64,000 bases of DNA. Origin: Candidatus Collierbacteria bacterium. Lineage in GTDB: Bacteria > Patescibacteriota > Microgenomatia > UBA1400 > JACPES01. The DNA is taken from assembly GCA_016183365.1 (NCBI GenBank), contig JACPES010000003.1, positions 105,467 to 169,466 of the forward strand, read 5' to 3'. A program made the position numbers and the translations under genes. Shown here one piece after another: positions 29,345 through 54,605 of this stretch; position 1 is the first letter of the stretch, and each line of letters starts with the position of its first letter. The notes beneath the pieces are model-generated. The model worked only from the letters and a program-made list of their open reading frames with translations. It did no database searches and was not told the DNA's origin.

Positions 29345-30127
29345 TTAGCAATTTTTTGCCTTGCGCCAGCCGGCAGAGATGGCTTCTGATTCGGCGCAAA
29401 ACCAGCGTTCCCCGCGGGAGTCGTCTATCGCTGTTTTGTCGTATGAGCCACAGCCGGGAAGATGATAAATTTTTTCGCCGGAGGCAGAAATATTGCCTTT
29501 GATAAAACAATCGCCGGAAACTTCCGCATCCAGGCGGACAGGTGAAGAGGTCGGGTCCTGCGGAACAGGATCTCGCTCCGCGAGACAAGAACTCCATAAG
29601 CCCAGATTTTTTTCTCGGGCTTTGGCTTGGGCGACAACGAATAAATCCTGGAATTTCACATCCGGTGGGTAACTGTAAGAATGAGCAAAACCTTGTTTGA
29701 CTAATTCCAAGTTAACGAATACTGACGATTCTTGATCCGGATCGCCTAAATAAACATATCGCAATGATCGGCCGTATTTATCCTTGTCGGTTATATCTTT
29801 GGTTAGCCACACCGGTTTTCCTTCCACCAATTCTCTGTTTTTCTGCGCCGCCTCTTTGCCAAAACACTGGATCGGCTTTCTTGGATCCAAAGTCTCCGGC
29901 GTATCAATCCCGATATATCTAATTTTTTCTCCGTTTTCCAATTCTATGGTGTCGCCATCGATAACCCGTTTAACATTGATACCCTCTGATTTCGTTTCGA
30001 TAGTCAATTGCGGAGACTGCAAAATATTAGGTATAAGGGTTACCCGAGTTCGTTTTCCCAGCCAAAACCCGATCCCCAACAGAATAATTCCCAGCAGTAT
30101 TAAAATCGGCCAGCCTAGCTTAATCAT
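29345..30127 (-). CDS. Thermonuclease (SNase-like) family protein with a C-terminal Cys-containing domain
   Basis: N-terminal TM helix, VIDGDTIELENGEKIRYIGIDTPE, and a C-terminal GDCFIKGNIS ... WFCAESEAISAGWR domain. Confidence 0.7.
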   Translation of the reverse strand: MIKLGWPILILLGIILLGIGFWLGKRTRVTLIPNILQSPQLTIETKSEGINVKRVIDGDTIELENGEKIRYIGIDTPETLDPRKPIQCFGKEAAQKNRELVEGKPVWLTKDITDKDKYGRSLRYVYLGDPDQESSVFVNLELVKQGFAHSYSYPPDVKFQDLFVVAQAKAREKNLGLWSSCLAERDPVPQDPTSSPVRLDAEVSGDCFIKGNISASGEKIYHLPGCGSYDKTAIDDSRGERWFCAESEAISAGWRKAKNC

Positions 30128-30340: not shown

Positions 30341-31390
30341 TCACCCCCCTGCTAACAAATTTGTTCTCAACAATGTCCATCTGATTTTATCTGCTAAATT
30401 ATAAATAGTATAAATAGGCTGATTGAGGACTAAGTCCCAAGTGCCGACAAATTCAACCAATTTTCCGCCATAACCTTCTTTGAAGCGATGAAATCCGTAC
30501 CACTGGTCTTTGATATCGGGCTCCGGCCCCAAACTTCCCCAGAAGTCGAACATTTTGCAGCCGGATTTTTTGGCCATCAGCAATGCCCGCCAAGCCACCA
30601 GGTTGCTCGCCATCAATTCCCGGTTTTCACTTGAACTGGCGCCGTAAGGATAGTACCCGATGCCATTGAAGAAAAACAAAATCCAGGCGGATAAAACTGG
30701 TTGTTGGTTATTAGTTGTTAGTTGTTGGGGCAGTCTGGCGACCAATAAATGAGCGATGCCAGCGGATTTCATAGTTTTCCACATCAATTGGCGGTATTTC
30801 CGGCCATGGGCGTAAAAGCGTTGGCGTGAAGTTGTTTCTTCCGTCAATTTCTGAAACGCTTCAAACGCTTCATCCGAATTATCCTCCTTAACGACAATCC
30901 CCTTCTTTTCTGCCAGCCGAATGTTGTAACGGGTTTTGGGCCTCATTGTCGCCATCAGCTCGTCTTCAGATTTAGTCAAGTCAAGTTGAAAAGAAAATGG
31001 AGTAAACAAAGACTTCCCAGATTTCAATCCTAAATCTGATAAGGCCTGGCCTTGAAACTCCAAGGTCAAGCCTTTATGGACTTGAATGTTCGGTTCGAAT
31101 TTTACGAATATGCAATTATATTTTTTTACTTCTGATTTAACCGCATCAATCCATTCTTTATCCAACATTATTCCTCTGGGACAATATCCAATCGTCCACT
31201 TCGTGCGGGGAATTTGGTGAATTGAGATTTGTATCCCCTCAATTAATTTGCCACCTGTAAATTTCCCTAAGCGGATAACCTTTTGCCCCAACTTCTCCCG
31301 AAATTCCCCCCAGCTCCAGGATTGGAGAGGGTGGGCTGCTGTTTTGTCAAATTCTTGACGGAAGTCTGTGTCAACTGTTTTGATTTCCAT
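30341..31390 (-). CDS. FemAB-family peptidoglycan interpeptide-bridge aminoacyltransferase
   Basis: MRPKTRYNIRLAEKKG and a YYPYGASS region typical of FemAB/FemX. Carries a low-complexity insert QQLTTNNQQP. Confidence 0.65.
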   Translation of the reverse strand: MEIKTVDTDFRQEFDKTAAHPLQSWSWGEFREKLGQKVIRLGKFTGGKLIEGIQISIHQIPRTKWTIGYCPRGIMLDKEWIDAVKSEVKKYNCIFVKFEPNIQVHKGLTLEFQGQALSDLGLKSGKSLFTPFSFQLDLTKSEDELMATMRPKTRYNIRLAEKKGIVVKEDNSDEAFEAFQKLTEETTSRQRFYAHGRKYRQLMWKTMKSAGIAHLLVARLPQQLTTNNQQPVLSAWILFFFNGIGYYPYGASSSENRELMASNLVAWRALLMAKKSGCKMFDFWGSLGPEPDIKDQWYGFHRFKEGYGGKLVEFVGTWDLVLNQPIYTIYNLADKIRWTLLRTNLLAGG

Positions 31391-31480: not shown

Positions 31481-33343
31481 TTACACTCTCTCTAAATTCT
31501 CCTCCCCGATTTCAGAAATAAACCGGCTCGGGATCGATATTCCCCTGGATCCAAAATACATCCGGTTTCTGGCGTTAGTCAAATATAAATTATCCATGGC
31601 CCGGGTAATCCCGACGTACATCAGCCGTCTTTCTTCTTCGACGTCCTCTGATTTTAATAAGCTGCGACTATGAGGCAGCAAGCCTTCTTCCAATCCTGAC
31701 AAAAATACCGTCGGGAACTCCAAACCTTTGGCGGCATGAAGCGTCATCAAAGTGACGGCGTCGGTTTCGCCGCTGCGGCGGCGCATTTGTTGATCCTCAA
31801 GTAAAGCCACCTGCTCTAAAAATCTTCCTAAGTCAGGATAATTTTCCGCCACAGACAACAATTCTTTGACGTTTTCTATCCGACCGACGTCTTCCGGGTC
31901 TTCCGGATCCAGTTTATCTAAGTATTTAGTGGCGGCGATGACTCCTTCCAAAATCTCCCGGGTGGTTTTGATGATCAAGTTATCTATGAATTTACGGAAT
32001 TCCTGATAACGTTTTTGGCCGATTTTTAGAGCTCTAGTTAAAGACAGTTTATCTGCCGGATTATAAATTAATCTTAAATACGCCAGACAATCTTTTATTT
32101 CCGCCCGTTCGTAAAATCTGATCCCTCCGACCAAAATATACGGAATACCTGCTCCCAACAGGGCTTCTTCAAAAATCCGGGATTGGGCGTTGGTCCGGTA
32201 CAGGACCGAAAAATCTTTAAACTTAAATTGACCATTTGCCTTGGCCTTTTCATAACCGATTGAGGTGACTACGAATTTGGCTTCTTCCAGTTCTGAAAGA
32301 GCGGTATAAAGCTTTGGTTTGAAAACTGATTTTTTGTCGGTCCAGAGTTTTAAAATCGGATGCTGTTTATTGCGGGAAATCAGGCTGTGGGCGGCGTCTA
32401 ATATCGGTTGATTGGAACGGTAATTTCTCTCCAGCCTGATTTCTTTTAGATTCGGATAATCTTTTTTTAAATTCATTAAATTCCGAAAATTAGCCCCGCG
32501 GAAAGTGTAAATGGACTGCGACATATCTCCGACCACGGTGATATTATTGTATCTACCTGATAATTGCTTGGCCAATTTGTACTGGACGGAATTGGTATCC
32601 TGATATTCATCTATTAATAAATATTTAATTTGCTCCTGATAGCGGGATAATAGCTCCTGATCGCGGTTGAATAATCTAACGGTTTCAAACAGCAAATCGT
32701 CAAAATCCAGTCCGCCGGATTGGGTCAACCGCTTTTGATATTCGCTGTAAATTTTGGCGATGGTTTCCTGCCACTCGCCGCTACTTACCCCCATATATTC
32801 AACCGGAGTCACCATCTCATTTTTAGCCTCGGAGATTATGGCCGAAACCGAATTGGGGCGGAATTTTTTGGAATTTAATTTAGAATCGGAAATGATTTCT
32901 TTAATCAATTGGCGCCGATCCTCCTCGTCGTAAATCAGCCATTCCGGTTTTAATCCGGCGCGGGAGGCATGTTTTCTTAAAATCCAGGCGCACCAGGAGT
33001 GGAAGGTGCCGGAAAATGGTAGGGATAAGTTGTTAGTTGTTAGTTGTCCCGCGAAGCGGGATCCTGCTTCGCCAAGTACAGTCCTGTACCTGGCTTCGCA
33101 GGATTGATTGTTGAGCAGAGTCTCAACTCTGCGTTTCATTTCGCCAGCGGCCTTGTTGGTAAAGGTCAGCAGCAATATTTTATCCGGATCTACCAGTTTT
33201 TCGGACATTAACCAGGCTACCCGGTAAGTTAAGCAGCGGGTTTTGCCGCTGCCGGCTCCGGCTAAGATTAATAGCGGTCCGTCGCCGTGAGTGACGGCTA
33301 ACCGCTGTTCTGGATTTAGCTCTGATAAAAACTCTCGCGTCAT
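31481..33343 (-). CDS. uvrD: ATP-dependent DNA helicase UvrD/PcrA
   Basis: AGAGSGKTRCLT Walker A, TFTNKAAGEM, DEYQDTN and other SF1 motifs. Carries an in-frame insert of about 22 aa between motifs Ia and Ib. Confidence 0.9.
   Translation of the reverse strand: MTREFLSELNPEQRLAVTHGDGPLLILAGAGSGKTRCLTYRVAWLMSEKLVDPDKILLLTFTNKAAGEMKRRVETLLNNQSCEARYRTVLGEAGSRFAGQLTTNNLSLPFSGTFHSWCAWILRKHASRAGLKPEWLIYDEEDRRQLIKEIISDSKLNSKKFRPNSVSAIISEAKNEMVTPVEYMGVSSGEWQETIAKIYSEYQKRLTQSGGLDFDDLLFETVRLFNRDQELLSRYQEQIKYLLIDEYQDTNSVQYKLAKQLSGRYNNITVVGDMSQSIYTFRGANFRNLMNLKKDYPNLKEIRLERNYRSNQPILDAAHSLISRNKQHPILKLWTDKKSVFKPKLYTALSELEEAKFVVTSIGYEKAKANGQFKFKDFSVLYRTNAQSRIFEEALLGAGIPYILVGGIRFYERAEIKDCLAYLRLIYNPADKLSLTRALKIGQKRYQEFRKFIDNLIIKTTREILEGVIAATKYLDKLDPEDPEDVGRIENVKELLSVAENYPDLGRFLEQVALLEDQQMRRRSGETDAVTLMTLHAAKGLEFPTVFLSGLEEGLLPHSRSLLKSEDVEEERRLMYVGITRAMDNLYLTNARNRMYFGSRGISIPSRFISEIGEENLERV
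33027..33102. repeat. GC-rich double-hairpin element inserted in frame inside uvrD
   Basis: gttgtCCCGCgaaGCGGGatCCTGC ... GCAGGa. Same architecture as the copies at 37538-37590, 37626-37678 and 38047-38087. Confidence 0.6.
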
Positions 33344-37260: not shown

Positions 37261-37512
37261 TAGCACGAGTTCCTCACACACTGGCTCGTTGGCGGAATTT
37301 GCTCGTTTGCTGTCACCCCTCGTTGCTACTCGGGGCAAGCCCACTCGCTGTCGCTCGGGGTGGCCTCGGGTGGCAGCTAGCTCACTTCGCAAATTTGCCA
37401 ACTTCGCTAGTGCTCAAACGCGGAACTCATAAGCAGTAGAACGCTGATTTGCGCCAGTTTATATATCTGGCAATATTTGGAAATATTTGGTAAAGACAGA
37501 CTTAGCATTTTT

Positions 37513-37689
37513 GAGGCGCGTGAGGGAATCGAACCCTTGTATAGCGGTTTTGTCCTGCAGAGCAGGATCTAGCTTCGCTAGACAGACAGTTCCCTTCTTT
37601 GAGGCCTGGAAGGGAATCGAACCCTTGTATAGCGGTTTTGTCCTGCAGAGCAGGATCTAGCTTCGCTAGACAGACAGTTCCCTTCTTTG
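37513..37689 (-). repeat. Two tandem 88-bp direct repeats, each a double-hairpin element plus a copy of the tRNA-Cys 3' half (pseudo-tRNA units)
   Basis: 37513-37600 and 37601-37688 are near-identical. Each ends with CAAGGGTTCGATTCCCTTCCAGGCC, identical to the T-arm and acceptor 3' strand of the adjacent tRNA-Cys, but has no D-arm or 5' acceptor strand. Confidence 0.6.
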
Positions 37690-37761
37690 AGGCCTGGAAG
37701 GGAATCGAACCCTTGTATAGCGGTTTTGCAGACCGCCGCGTTACCACTTCGCCACCAGGCC
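37690..37761 (-). tRNA. tRNA-Cys (anticodon GCA)
   Basis: Minus-strand read GGCCTGG..GGCG..GCGGT-CTGCAAA-ACCGC..AAGGG-TTCGATT-CCCTT-CCAGGCC-T folds as a cloverleaf. Anticodon loop CTGCAAA carries GCA. No encoded CCA. Confidence 0.7.
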
Positions 37762-38013
37762 CTATTTCAAACTTTCTTTAATTTGCTTCATCAAATTGTT
37801 CTTCACCGCATGCATTTTCAGTTGTACTTCTCTTTTCGTCGCATCGGGCTTTTCTTTATATGCCTCATAATATACCAATATCCAAGGTCGATAAGACTTT
37901 GTCGATTTAACTTTTCCAGAATTATGTCTGAAAAACCGATTTTTTAAATCATCGGTGCAACCAACATAAAGCCTATGATCAACAGCACTTTTTAACAGAT
38001 ACACGTAATGCAT
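37762..38013 (-). CDS. GIY-YIG nuclease superfamily protein (YhbQ/YazA UPF0213-like, 83 aa)
   Basis: VYLLKS ... RLYVGCTDDLKNRFFRHNSG ... RPWILVY ... KREVQLK. Its stop abuts the 5' end of tRNA-Cys. Confidence 0.65.
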   Translation of the reverse strand: MHYVYLLKSAVDHRLYVGCTDDLKNRFFRHNSGKVKSTKSYRPWILVYYEAYKEKPDATKREVQLKMHAVKNNLMKQIKESLK

Positions 38014-38046: not shown

Positions 38047-38115
38047 TTTTGTCCTGCAGGGCAGGATCCCGCTCCGCGGGACAGACCGCCACATTACCCT
38101 GGCTTTGCCAGACCA
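38047..38115 (-). repeat. Double-hairpin element copy fused to a tRNA-Cys-like 5' half, upstream of the GIY-YIG gene
   Basis: Minus-strand read GGTCTGGCAAAGCCAGGGTAATGTGGCGGTCTG. This resembles an acceptor strand, D-arm and anticodon stem 5' strand. It is followed by TCCCGCggaGCGGGATCCTGCcctGCAGGAcaaaac. Confidence 0.5.
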
Positions 38116-47942: not shown

Positions 47943-48728
47943 ATGAAAAAATATTTTAAGGTTTGGCTGCAGCTGGCGCACATCAGTTTCGCCGAACAGT
48001 TGGCGACGAGATTCAGTTCGGTATTATTTTTAATCGGTAAAACCGCCAGATTTGTTTTCTTTCTGGTATTTTTGTTCAGCTTAGTCAACCGGACCGGAGG
48101 GTTGGCGGGGTATACCAAAGAACAGGTGATTATTTTCTTTTTGATGTATAACTTGGTGGATATTTCCACCCAGTTTTTTTTCCGCGGGGTGTATTTTTTC
48201 CGCCAAAAAGTGGTGTCGGGAGAGTTTGATTTTTATTTAGCAAAACCGATGAACCCCCTATTCCGGATTATGGCTGGATACACGGATTTTTTGGATTTGG
48301 TTACCTTAGCGGCTTTGGCGGTTTATGGGGCTTGGTTTGCCGGCCAAAGTTCGATCCGACCTGACCCGATGACAGCAATCTTACTACTAATAATGTTAGC
48401 GGTCAGCTTTTTGATTGCCTTGGCAATTCATATTATCGTAGTGGCTATAGGAGTGATTACCACCGAAGTAGACCACTCGATTATGGTATATCGGGATTTG
48501 ACCAGCATGGCCCGGGTGCCACTGGAAGTTTACAGCCAGCCGGTGAGAATTTTTTTGACTTATTTAATCCCGATTGGATTTATGATCACGGCCCCAGCGA
48601 AGGCTTTATTAGGATTGTTGACGCCGCCAACCTTTTTGTTCTCATTGCTTCTCGCTTCCTGCTTCCTGTTTCTCTCTCTCCGTCTCTGGCGTTACGCCCT
48701 ATCCCAATACAGCAGCGCAAGCAGTTAA
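47943..48728 (+). CDS. ABC-2 family transporter permease (ends ...QYSSASS)
   Basis: Six-TM permease. Confidence 0.55.
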   Translation: MKKYFKVWLQLAHISFAEQLATRFSSVLFLIGKTARFVFFLVFLFSLVNRTGGLAGYTKEQVIIFFLMYNLVDISTQFFFRGVYFFRQKVVSGEFDFYLAKPMNPLFRIMAGYTDFLDLVTLAALAVYGAWFAGQSSIRPDPMTAILLLIMLAVSFLIALAIHIIVVAIGVITTEVDHSIMVYRDLTSMARVPLEVYSQPVRIFLTYLIPIGFMITAPAKALLGLLTPPTFLFSLLLASCFLFLSLRLWRYALSQYSSASS

Positions 48729-48836
48729 TGAGTTGAGAGTAAAGAGTAAGGAGTAGAAAATAATGAGTAATGAAAATCAAGTAGCCGCGAAGCGCACAGT
48801 GTGGAACAAAAAACATGTGAGTCAGCGCGTGGTTTT

Positions 48837-49631
48837 TTATATCCGCGAAGAAGGGCAAAGTTTTTGTAGCGGACAATGCGGGCAATCGGGATTTTGGGCT
48901 TTACAGATGGCACGGCCATGATCTATCAATAAATATGTAAGTGCGAACCAATCTTCTTTTGGAATAATTTTCATAAGTTTCTGTTCAATCTTTTCCGGTG
49001 AGGCGTCTTTGTAATAATCGAGAATGAGATTGCCACGCCCGCGACCCAGGGTCGTGGCTCGCAATGACGGAGAAAGGTTCTTAGTAAAATAGACAGGTTT
49101 TTTGTTGGATCCAATTTTATCTTGAGAAACCAAATGCAGGCGTTGACTCAAGCGCAGGACGTGAGTATCAACCGCAATGCCCTCAACAATTCCGTAAGCG
49201 TTGCCTAAAACTACATTGGCGGTTTTCCGGGCAACACCGGGAATTGTCAGCATTTTTGCCATTGTCTTTGGAAGTTTTCCGTCAAACTTTTCAAGCAGTA
49301 TGCGTGCCGCCGCCTGAATATTTTTGGCTTTATTCCGGTAAAATCCTGTAGATTTGATATCTTTTTCCAATTCTTGTATCGGGGCTGTTGCAAAATTTTC
49401 CATCTCTTGCTCTTCTTCTGTCTTTCCCTTAGCCCTTAGCCCTTGTCCCTTAGCCTTGCGAAGCTTCATAAACAATTTCACCGTCACCTTATTAACTTTC
49501 TTATCCGTACACTGGGCCGAGAGAATGACGGAAACCAGCAATTCCCAGTTGTTTCCATAATTGAGGACAATTTTGGCGTTGGGATAAGTTTGTTTGAGAA
49601 TGTTAATAATTGCAGAGGTGTGTTTGTTCAT
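48837..49631 (-). CDS. nth: Endonuclease III
   Basis: HhH-GPD with FYRNKAKNI, and a C-terminal 4Fe-4S loop CKAQNPDCPHCPLQKLC. Carries a Lys/Gly-rich insert. Confidence 0.8.
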   Translation of the reverse strand: MNKHTSAIINILKQTYPNAKIVLNYGNNWELLVSVILSAQCTDKKVNKVTVKLFMKLRKAKGQGLRAKGKTEEEQEMENFATAPIQELEKDIKSTGFYRNKAKNIQAAARILLEKFDGKLPKTMAKMLTIPGVARKTANVVLGNAYGIVEGIAVDTHVLRLSQRLHLVSQDKIGSNKKPVYFTKNLSPSLRATTLGRGRGNLILDYYKDASPEKIEQKLMKIIPKEDWFALTYLLIDHGRAICKAQNPDCPHCPLQKLCPSSRI

Positions 49632-54497: not shown

Positions 54498-54605
54498 ATT
54501 AAAGCGCAAAGTGCAAATATCAAAGCGCAAAGTTAAGCTAAAAGTTAAAAACTTTAAGCTTTGAATTTGGTTTTGATCTTTGAGTTTTGATCTTTTAGTT
54601 TATAT

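Follow-up and report, generated by a model that had tools for sequence, protein, structure and literature searches.

The 64-kb stretch of Candidatus Collierbacteria DNA analyzed here (the window) holds an intact gene for a uvrD/pcrA-type helicase, a thermonuclease gene, and a locus in which a small GIY-YIG nuclease gene stands beside the sole tRNA gene and several tRNA-Cys fragments (Table 1). Common to all three is a 30-nt double hairpin, here named E, in which two adjacent 6-bp stems with 3-nt loops follow the pattern TCNNGC-GRA-GCNNGA + TCCTGY-NNN-GCAGGA. A first-pass annotation, made from the letters of the window, had proposed a double-hairpin family with an in-frame member in uvrD and had likened its behavior to that of the palindromic elements of Rickettsia. 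The family proved to be real: further copies occur in many genomes, and the insert in uvrD is not ordinary conserved protein sequence. Comparison of these copies identifies E as a dispersed mobile family of the Microgenomates group of Candidate Phyla Radiation (CPR) bacteria, and E is physically tied to cassettes of GIY-YIG and tRNA genes at breaks in tRNA loops.

With a covariance model of 51 distinct copies and with filters off, E was found at five places in the window and at no others; the first-pass annotation had suggested such a model for its own four copies. All four are among the five places, and a fifth, in the thermonuclease gene, had been overlooked. Against shuffled expectations for the window, the pattern TCTAGCGAAGCTAGA had 2 matches (0.04 expected), the pattern CCTGCNNNGCAGG had 3 (0.02 expected), and the 20-mer core with no more than 3 mismatches had 4 (0.13 expected). 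Some of the boundaries and parts first assigned to the element changed. The interval given for the uvrD copy, 33027 to 33102, does contain E, but E itself runs from 33047 to 33103 and the stretch from 33028 to 33047 is a separate heptamer array; the copy placed at 38047 to 38087 is present but spans 38052 to 38081. The GTCTG that had been assigned to the element belongs instead to tRNA-Cys, of which it is the anticodon-stem flank; the copies in uvrD and the nuclease gene lack it. What had been read as tRNA units are 88-bp tandem units, each with a pseudogene that is a tRNA-Cys 3′ half.

Table 1. Copies of E and associated features in the window (numbered from its first nucleotide)
Feature	Position	Strand	Basis or remark
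E copy TCTCGCGGAGCGAGATCCTGTTCCGCAGGA in thermonuclease gene	29556-29585	-	In frame, sense; covariance model
uvrD/pcrA-type helicase gene, 620 aa, intact	31481-33343	-	Pfam UvrD-helicase domains in homologues
Heptamer array AGTTGTT x2.9, abutting E	33028-33047	+	TRF; encodes QLTTNN on uvrD strand
E, 57-nt derivative inside uvrD	33047-33103	+ (antisense to gene)	Covariance model; DNA fold -17.3 kcal/mol, z -5.1
Hairpin 1 of uvrD copy, TCCCGC-GAA-GCGGGA	33047-33061	+	Sequence
Hairpin 2 of uvrD copy, outer stem TCCTGC and GCAGGA	33062-33067 and 33098-33103	+	Sequence
Duplicated loop triplet TTC of hairpin 2	33068-33070 and 33095-33097	+	Flanks inner hairpin
Inner 24-nt hairpin GCCAAGTACAG-TC-CTGTACCTGGC in loop of hairpin 2	33071-33094	+	Sequence, fold
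Perfect 88-bp tandem repeat, 2.3 copies	37523-37728		Unit: tRNA-Cys 3′ half, 12-nt spacer, GTCTG, E
E copy identical to TCTAGCGAAGCTAGATCCTGCTCTGCAGGA, second 88-bp unit	37553-37582	-	Followed by older tRNA-Cys 3′ half, 37552-37512
E copy TCTAGCGAAGCTAGATCCTGCTCTGCAGGA	37641-37670	-	GTCTG before; tRNA-Cys 3′ half 37640-37600 after
Intact tRNA-Cys(GCA), sole tRNA gene	37689-37761	-	ARAGORN; Rfam 69 bits
Small GIY-YIG nuclease gene, 83 aa, UPF0213 type	37762-38013	-	Pfam PF01541, E-value 1.2e-15
E copy at break of tRNA-Cys 5′ pseudo-half	38052-38081	-	Flanks GGTCTG|E|CAAAAC
Diverged tRNA-Cys 5′ half, ending at nucleotide 34 (...GGTCTG)	38114-38082	-	21/33 positions identical to intact tRNA-Cys
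Extended -10-like box TGGTAGAAT	38138-38130	-	15 nt upstream of pseudo 5′ half; read by eye

E is pseudo-symmetric, with a GRA loop first and a TYC loop second whichever strand is read, and the whole element becomes a 30-bp palindrome (a single inverted repeat) only if NN is CT. Its stems are kept complementary. Among the 51 distinct copies, which come from many genomes, both free stem positions of hairpin 1 co-vary: pair 3-13 is UA in 27, CG in 16, and AU in 4, and pair 4-12 is CG in 23, GC in 10, AU in 6, and UA in 5. Complementarity at these free positions is kept in almost every copy, through four pair types at each, and the observed covariation score was reached by 0 of 500 shuffles. Hairpin 2 likewise co-varies where it departs from CCTGC. 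The earlier argument that compensatory stem changes maintain the structure, drawn from a few copies in the window, thus extends to the family. G-U and C-A mismatches, whose counts were meant to tell action as RNA from action as DNA, were very few. Folding with DNA parameters gave two adjacent hairpins in all window copies, with z-scores of -3 to -6. Two other architectures were considered and ruled out: a solo single hairpin as the basic unit (88 doublets versus a handful of solo hairpins) and a three-way junction closed by a stem of TTG...CAA, the flanks being uncorrelated within copies (4 observed versus 7 expected).

The uvrD copy is the one that the first-pass annotation had placed, in frame, between helicase motifs Ia and Ib. 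Comparison of sixty UvrD orthologues located it in the same interval: in this group the protein is hypervariable between motif Ia (TFTNKAAxEM) and motif Ib (GTFHS), where the shortest forms have no insert and the window protein, in which all helicase domains are present, carries an insert (E plus array-encoded residues) that makes it about 33 aa longer than the shortest orthologues. The filled site in the window, ...AAC AAT CAA (57 nt) CAA CTA ACA ACT AAC AAC..., is matched in P0003 (67% identity) by the empty site ...AAC AGT CAA|CAA TCA ACT ATC AAC..., and P0015 (63% identity) has a similar one. The difference between filled and empty sites is clean, with no duplicated target. In P0004 (65% identity) the same flanks surround TCCTGC-TCC-GCGGGA, a 15-nt remnant that is chimeric of the two hairpins and is therefore a deletion derivative of E. 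The closest relative, P0001, lacks E despite 86% identity and carries a different heptamer array, and the presence of E in uvrD therefore does not follow phylogeny. On the coding strand the site is a (CAACNNT)n array, the units of which end in TTG on the E strand, and E-free orthologues carry heptamer arrays at the same site. These alignments place the insertion of E in the variable loop that separates motifs Ia and Ib of uvrD, after a TTG belonging to a heptamer array.

The additional length of the uvrD copy lies in hairpin 2, where the loop triplet is present twice and encloses the inner hairpin; the copy gained this second hairpin in the hairpin 2 loop after insertion. The inner hairpin (GCCAGGTACAG..CTGTACTTGGC with GC-TTC/TTC-GC flanks, window positions 33068 to 33097) recurs at positions 1161 to 1193 and 6904 to 6936 of L077, a Patescibacteria metagenome-assembled genome (MAG) from the neighbor set of L076, where it caps a longer palindromic repeat. 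Apparently the inner hairpin belongs to another repeat family, one that can occupy the GCTTCGC apex of hairpin 2. Other long variants resembling the 57-nt uvrD copy were looked for, and none was real. The helicase gene reads the 57 nt through as SCEARYRTVLGEAGSRFAG, which is to say that the insertion reported earlier as about 22 aa stands as an insertion, with E alone accounting for 19 aa. If these residues are translated, TVLGEAGSR and FAGQLTTNNLSLPFSGTFHSWCAWILR are the predicted peptides, and the uvrD copy is probably a translated passenger of 19 extra residues without a function of its own.

To place the window copies in a wider setting, we searched for the pattern TCNNGCGNAGCNNGATCCTGYNNNGCAGGA in 185,579 species, each represented by a single genome. 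Exact matches were returned in 94 stretches; among the 80 listed, from which the taxonomy is taken, almost all belong to Microgenomates-group CPR bacteria (Gottesman-, Levy-, Collier-, and Woesebacteria). Many of the E-bearing contigs come from MAGs labelled "uncultured Gammaproteobacteria" (L003 to L005, L007, L010 to L012, and others). One of these, L005, shares up to 83% nucleotide identity with the Gottesmanbacteria locus L015, and the Gammaproteobacteria labels are probably wrong. A phage origin of E was not borne out, as 2.9 million viral contigs held no exact match. The number of copies varies widely, from one exact copy in some contigs of 0.6 to 1.2 Mb to eight or more in other MAGs.

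The flanks of 101 copies show a consistent pattern. On the 5′ side the flank is TTG (T at -3 in 59%, T at -2 in 70%, and G at -1 in 74%), while on the 3′ side C or G is found at +1 in 70% and A at +2 in 59%. Exact target duplications accompany 3 of the 101 copies, all in tandem arrays. Target-site duplication as a general feature was ruled out, with exact or near-exact 7- to 8-mers flanking array copies only. Judged by these flanks, E enters DNA cleanly, as a rule immediately 3′ of TTG and in many cases with CA or GA following. Long open spans hold 42 of the 101 copies, in both orientations, versus 68% for random 30-mers; within open reading frames (ORFs), 28 copies are antisense and 14 are sense. 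E is 10 codons long and nearly stop-free in six frames (92% of variant-frame combinations lack a stop), and genic copies therefore survive only in tolerant linkers. The encoded peptides are rich in Ser, Arg, Ala, Gly, and Pro, and those such as SRGARSCSAG, LAERDPAPQ, SRSEILLRR, SCGAGSRSAR, PAEQDLAPR, and LRSRISLRE are typical loop sequences. The thermonuclease copy encodes LAERDPVPQ in a variable inter-domain linker, and the gene stays open. Among 120 homologues of the thermonuclease, E is present only in the nearest clade (P0122 and P0128), with remnants in P0123, P0125, and P0126.

The orthologous thermonuclease copy in L058 (the same locus as P0128) has TCCCGC instead of TCTCGC, a compensatory change in hairpin 1 relative to the window copy. 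At orthologous sites generally, E is near-identical while its flanks have diverged to 66 to 70% identity (window/L058, L005/L010/L015/L080, and L017/L033/L034). Both observations could be expected of a host cis-acting site under selection, such as an uptake signal, a site for a nucleoid or replication protein, or a hairpin for RNA processing or stability, in which case the presence of E in genes would be a matter of function and not of mobility. E reads the same on both strands and would therefore work in either orientation, and CPR bacteria are thought to depend on DNA uptake. We nevertheless consider a cis-acting site quite improbable, given that copy number is so uneven, that the element decays (P0004, P0123, and P0126 hold remnants), and that its occurrence in uvrD is at odds with phylogeny. 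Known uptake sequences are spread fairly evenly through genes and spacers, at about one per kb, and arise by substitution, whereas E is found five times in the 64 kb of the window and arises as an insertion. As for a role in RNA, the strand bias within ORFs is too weak to suggest one, and no terminator-like T run is present at E. The conserved orthologous copies were found by exact match, and decayed copies are therefore invisible in this comparison.

Tandem arrays of short period are frequent neighbors of E. It abuts arrays of period 6 to 9 four times more often than random positions do, and a second pair of filled and empty sites, L062 versus L075, has a heptamer array at the empty site. Of all tandem periods in the CPR loci retrieved, period 7 is by far the most frequent (159 arrays versus 26 of period 6). 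The heptamer arrays at E sites may be landing pads or footprints. In the window, heptamer arrays lie at 30700-30726, 33028-33047, 48646-48672, 48736-48770, 49426-49455, 54501-54532, and 54566-54601, and ORFs without E hold heptamers as well (GTTGTTA in a FemAB-like gene and CCCTTAG in ORF 48837-49631).

The remaining three window copies lie in the tRNA-Cys locus. On the minus strand, the order is a diverged 5′ half, E, CAAAAC and a further 32 nt, the GIY-YIG gene, the intact tRNA-Cys, a 12-nt spacer, GTCTG-E-3′ half, and a repeat of this 88-bp unit. The first E is thus separated by 38 nt, CAAAAC included, from the GIY-YIG start codon, and the intact tRNA-Cys begins at the base after the GIY-YIG stop codon. 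All three copies are flanked by the two sides of the anticodon loop, CTG|CAAAA, split between nucleotides 34 and 35. The older of the two 3′ halves has a different acceptor strand. Two ORFs that overlap the 88-bp repeat (37502-37747 and 37687-37947) are spurious. A scan with a consensus promoter gave no minus-strand match upstream of the pseudo 5′ half; boxes similar to TGGTAGAAT, the -10-like sequence read there by eye, are also present in L097, L098, and L108.

Such a position in tRNA loops, which include those of archaeal and Patescibacteria tRNA introns, raises the question of whether E is a very short intron or intervening sequence that is removed from tRNA or mRNA and never reaches protein. 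A length that is a multiple of 3 would be harmless whether E is removed or not. The nearest report describes Patescibacteria in which group I introns interrupt tRNAs at position 35/36 (bioRxiv 10.1101/2025.07.03.662931); those introns are distinct from E. We removed E in silico from about 95 sequences (the 94 loci and the window) and ran ARAGORN on the products, and this restored no tRNA save an odd, doubtful tRNA-Ser-like one in L068. Excision does not recreate tRNAs, and E is therefore not an intron by this measure; the tRNA pieces that carry it are halves or diverged copies beside an intact gene. Furthermore, Rfam at its gathering threshold found only tRNA in the window and no intron family, self-splicing introns are all far longer than 30 nt, and E is found in ORFs in both orientations. 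Bacteria are not known to have the archaeal splicing endonuclease. Taken with all of this, splicing as an explanation of E is hardly credible.

The arrangement in the window recurs elsewhere. The layout A-E-b-(GIY-YIG)-(intact tRNA)-a-E-B was found in the genomes L081, L019, and L076 and in the metagenome loci L097 to L103, L108, L125, and L131, with L103 showing part of it (A-E-b-GIY-tRNA). In each case the cassette sits inside a broken copy of the same tRNA, and the break is always in a tRNA loop: the anticodon loop or D-loop of tRNA-Cys, or the D-loop of tRNA-Leu and tRNA-Ile, with several displaced tRNA 3′ fragments broken in the T-loop (TT|CGA). The classes of break are thus anticodon 34/35 or 35/36, D-loop, and T-loop 55/56. 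Their sequences (CTG|CAA, TTTT|CAA, GTT|CAAAT, GTT|CGA, and GGTG|GAA) fit the target pattern of the solo copies. The E copies that flank a cassette are identical in L100 and 1 nt apart in L108, with 5 to 11 nt of flank.

We then surveyed 80 metagenome loci that encode relatives of the GIY-YIG protein in the window. A tRNA gene starts no more than 60 nt downstream on the same strand in 27 of the 80, and 15 different tRNA species are represented. Perfect 15+15-nt double hairpins occur at 0.54 per kb between -150 and +350 nt of the GIY-YIG genes versus 0.02 per kb elsewhere, an enrichment of about 27-fold, with 0 in shuffles; often the double hairpin is 8 to 39 nt upstream of the GIY-YIG start codon. 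Several sequence families are involved, namely, an NNGC type (which is E), an NCCC/GGGN type, a GCC/GGC type, and a CAGCC type, and each family sits at a tRNA loop break. Breaks were seen in tRNA-Glu (TTTT|CAA, at 35/36), tRNA-Arg (CTT|CGG, at 34/35), and the T-loops of tRNA-Asp (GGTT|CAAAT), tRNA-Lys (GTT|(G)CGA), and tRNA-Ser (GGTTC|AAAT). Similar to E, the other families also have solo double hairpins in frame within ORFs.

Several individual loci show further variations on this arrangement. In those of the loci L097 to L176 where a small GIY-YIG gene lies directly 5′ of a tRNA gene, which is seen in many CPR lineages, a fragment of that tRNA often comes first and ends, in a loop, at a double hairpin of a lineage-specific sequence family (for example, L105 1454-1483, L115 1442-1471, L116 1446-1475, and L141 97-126). 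Displaced tRNA 3′ fragments often have an extra double hairpin in the T-loop (GGTT|CGA; L076 4983-5012, L068 5651-5680, L099 665-694, and L100 1968-1997), so that two elements per fragment are possible. At about 1455 to 1486 of L103, the tRNA-Cys 34/35 junction holds a variant with 4-nt loops, TCTCGC-TGGC-GCGAGA + TCTGGC-GCAA-GCCAGA, the length of which, 32 nt, is not a multiple of 3. In L129, a GCC/GGC-family double hairpin at 181 to 210 is in frame in an apparent prepilin-type leader (...KNLKLKI-SAQGGSASGG-QNSAGFTLIETLVSI).

The explanation toward which we lean, with modest confidence, assigns E to GIY-YIG/tRNA cassettes as their end or attachment module, with the uvrD copy as a solo translated passenger. 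The GIY-YIG protein has the catalytic-type residues Y3/Y5, Y16-x-G18, R26, H30, N31, and E50 invariant in six sequences; in the PDB it is closest to 1zg2 and 1ywl, both UPF0213 proteins, and it weakly matches the structure-specific nuclease SLX1. Such an SLX1-like nuclease would recognize or cut the extruded double hairpin or its target loop, and the a-E-b repeat would be the attachment site or duplicated target of the cassette. Given the extended -10-like box upstream of the pseudo 5′ half, we propose that the cassette would be transcribed from the promoter of the tRNA gene that it invades, for which it would supply a replacement tRNA. Solo copies might then be nonautonomous products of the same nuclease-driven reaction, whether break-and-copy or cut-and-ligate. 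One GIY-YIG nuclease would thus move both cassette and solo hairpins, in parallel with REP sequences and RAYT.

A number of observations weigh against this explanation. The two E copies that flank the cassette in the window differ in hairpin 1, and those of L081 face in opposite directions, which neither simple target duplication nor one crossover would explain unless conversion followed. A double hairpin is nearby in 15 of the 80 GIY-YIG loci (27 of 80 under a relaxed definition), and about 90 of the 101 copies of E have no GIY-YIG gene in their 8-kb locus. The intact tRNA of the cassette has the target loop sequence too, and its immunity is left unaccounted for. Conservation of E amid diverged flanks, in a set ascertained by exact match, could mean a cellular function. 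The nuclease activity of the GIY-YIG protein is a prediction, and its cut site is hypothetical. Finally, the link could be indirect, with cassettes making dispensable tRNA fragments whose loops are good targets for E.

This last point leads to the principal rival explanation, in which E is a selfish palindromic repeat that is moved by another enzyme or process and merely accumulates in the dispensable tRNA fragments left by GIY-YIG/tRNA cassettes, since the loops of tRNAs are similar to its target. Template switching in replication is one candidate mover; another is a single-strand transposase, IS200/IS605-like or RAYT-like, encoded at some other place in the genome. Elements of the IS200/IS605 type characteristically insert, by single-strand transposition, 3′ of a specific short sequence and leave the target unduplicated, which suits the behavior of E at TTG, and both hairpins of E lie on one strand, as do the left-end and right-end hairpins of IS200/IS605-type elements. 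The many copies of E far from any GIY-YIG gene, the many GIY-YIG loci without double hairpins, and the cassette-flanking copies that differ or are inverted would also be expected. On the other hand, several unrelated families of double hairpins occupy exactly the same place relative to GIY-YIG genes in different lineages, which passive accumulation predicts only if every family has the same loop preference. The double hairpin is often a mere 8 to 39 nt from the start codon, the flanking copies in L100 and L108 look like the outcome of one event, and the ten window genes around E that were scanned include no transposase (Y1/TnpA). We therefore regard another mover as unlikely, although it is the alternative to be taken most seriously.

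The cassette-module explanation can also be set against systems already described. In Rickettsia, palindromic elements are dispersed in intergenic DNA, in RNA genes, and in frame in protein genes, and, like E, they occupy permissive surface sites with the reading frame preserved; uvrD with its 57-nt insert and the thermonuclease gene with its 30-nt insert both stay open. The analogy drawn in the first-pass annotation therefore holds for behavior and does not extend to family membership. Rickettsia palindromic elements are roughly 100 to 150 bp long and restricted to Rickettsia, and they have no known partner gene. E is set apart by its size and host, being 30 nt long, made of two tandem mini-hairpins, carried by Candidatus Collierbacteria and other CPR bacteria, and tied to GIY-YIG and tRNA genes. 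Miniature inverted-repeat transposable elements have terminal inverted repeats and target duplications, whereas E has two tandem hairpins and target duplications in 3 of 101 copies.

A parallel in organization is that of REP sequences or BIMEs with RAYT, in which many short hairpin repeats accompany a single-copy nuclease gene that is flanked by the same repeats and thought to spread them. The RAYT partner is a tyrosine (Y1) HUH enzyme, whereas the proposed partner of E is a GIY-YIG nuclease linked to a tRNA gene. REP sequences are extragenic and have a GTAG or CGTC head (PMC3733652), while about 42% of E copies are in ORFs and E starts with TC after a 5′ flank of TTG. IS200/IS605 elements and their miniature derivatives (PATEs) resemble E in inserting 3′ of a short specific sequence without duplication (TTG at -3 to -1 in 59 to 74% of copies of E) and in having end hairpins on the same strand. 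E is far shorter, and its hairpins, at the very ends, leave no space for guide sequences. In mitochondria, double-hairpin elements and GC clusters are short G+C-rich hairpins, single or double, that spread within a genome through intergenic DNA, rRNA genes, and protein genes (PMC2800124, PMC4478555). These double-hairpin elements, repetitive hairpin-forming elements, and yeast GC clusters are organellar and unrelated to E in sequence, and neither targeting of tRNA loops nor GIY-YIG/tRNA cassettes have been described for them.

Phage T4 SegB is a GIY-YIG nuclease encoded among tRNA genes that cuts tRNA-gene DNA and promotes the inheritance of its own region (PMC2330249). The CPR protein has the GIY-YIG catalytic domain (PF01541) with its catalytic-type residues, and in many lineages the cassette lies between broken tRNA halves, the visible outcome of what may have been cleavage of a cassette-free allele followed by copying. 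SegB, which is phage-encoded, is larger and includes a DNA-binding domain, whereas the CPR protein is a chromosomally encoded, bare UPF0213/SLX1-like domain of 83 aa, and SegB has no terminal double hairpins, broken tRNA halves, or solo repeats. E is thus not a member of any of the Rickettsia, REP/RAYT, mitochondrial, or SegB systems, from which it differs in size, sequence, host, target, and partner enzyme. In the literature that we searched on the sequence of E, on repeat elements of CPR bacteria, and on GIY-YIG genes with tRNA genes in Patescibacteria, we found no description of E or of its pairing with GIY-YIG/tRNA cassettes.

We tentatively suggest, as a possibility short of an expectation, that double hairpins and SLX1-like GIY-YIG proteins of 83 aa together constitute a previously unrecognized class of bacterial mobile element, with autonomous nuclease-tRNA cassettes and nonautonomous solo hairpins. 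The cassettes would enter tRNA genes at the loops, supply a replacement tRNA, and use the resident promoter, and the nuclease would spread the solo hairpins by structure-specific cleavage. Even without the link to GIY-YIG genes, E shows clearly, and in many genomes, that palindromic DNA is written into proteins of bacteria other than Rickettsia, and it may be useful as a strain-level marker in groundwater metagenomes. If the link holds, a type of mobile element would be made from a minimal GIY-YIG nuclease and a defined 30-nt DNA structure, and biochemists would have a small structure-specific nuclease candidate with a known candidate substrate. The host lineage is a huge, uncultured part of the bacterial tree in which few transposable elements are known. 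There, proteins throughout the CPR would receive linkers of 10 codons from this element, and it would account for the scattered tRNA gene fragments and the hypervariable loops of UvrD, nucleases, and pilins in these bacteria, both of which annotators could recognize through E.

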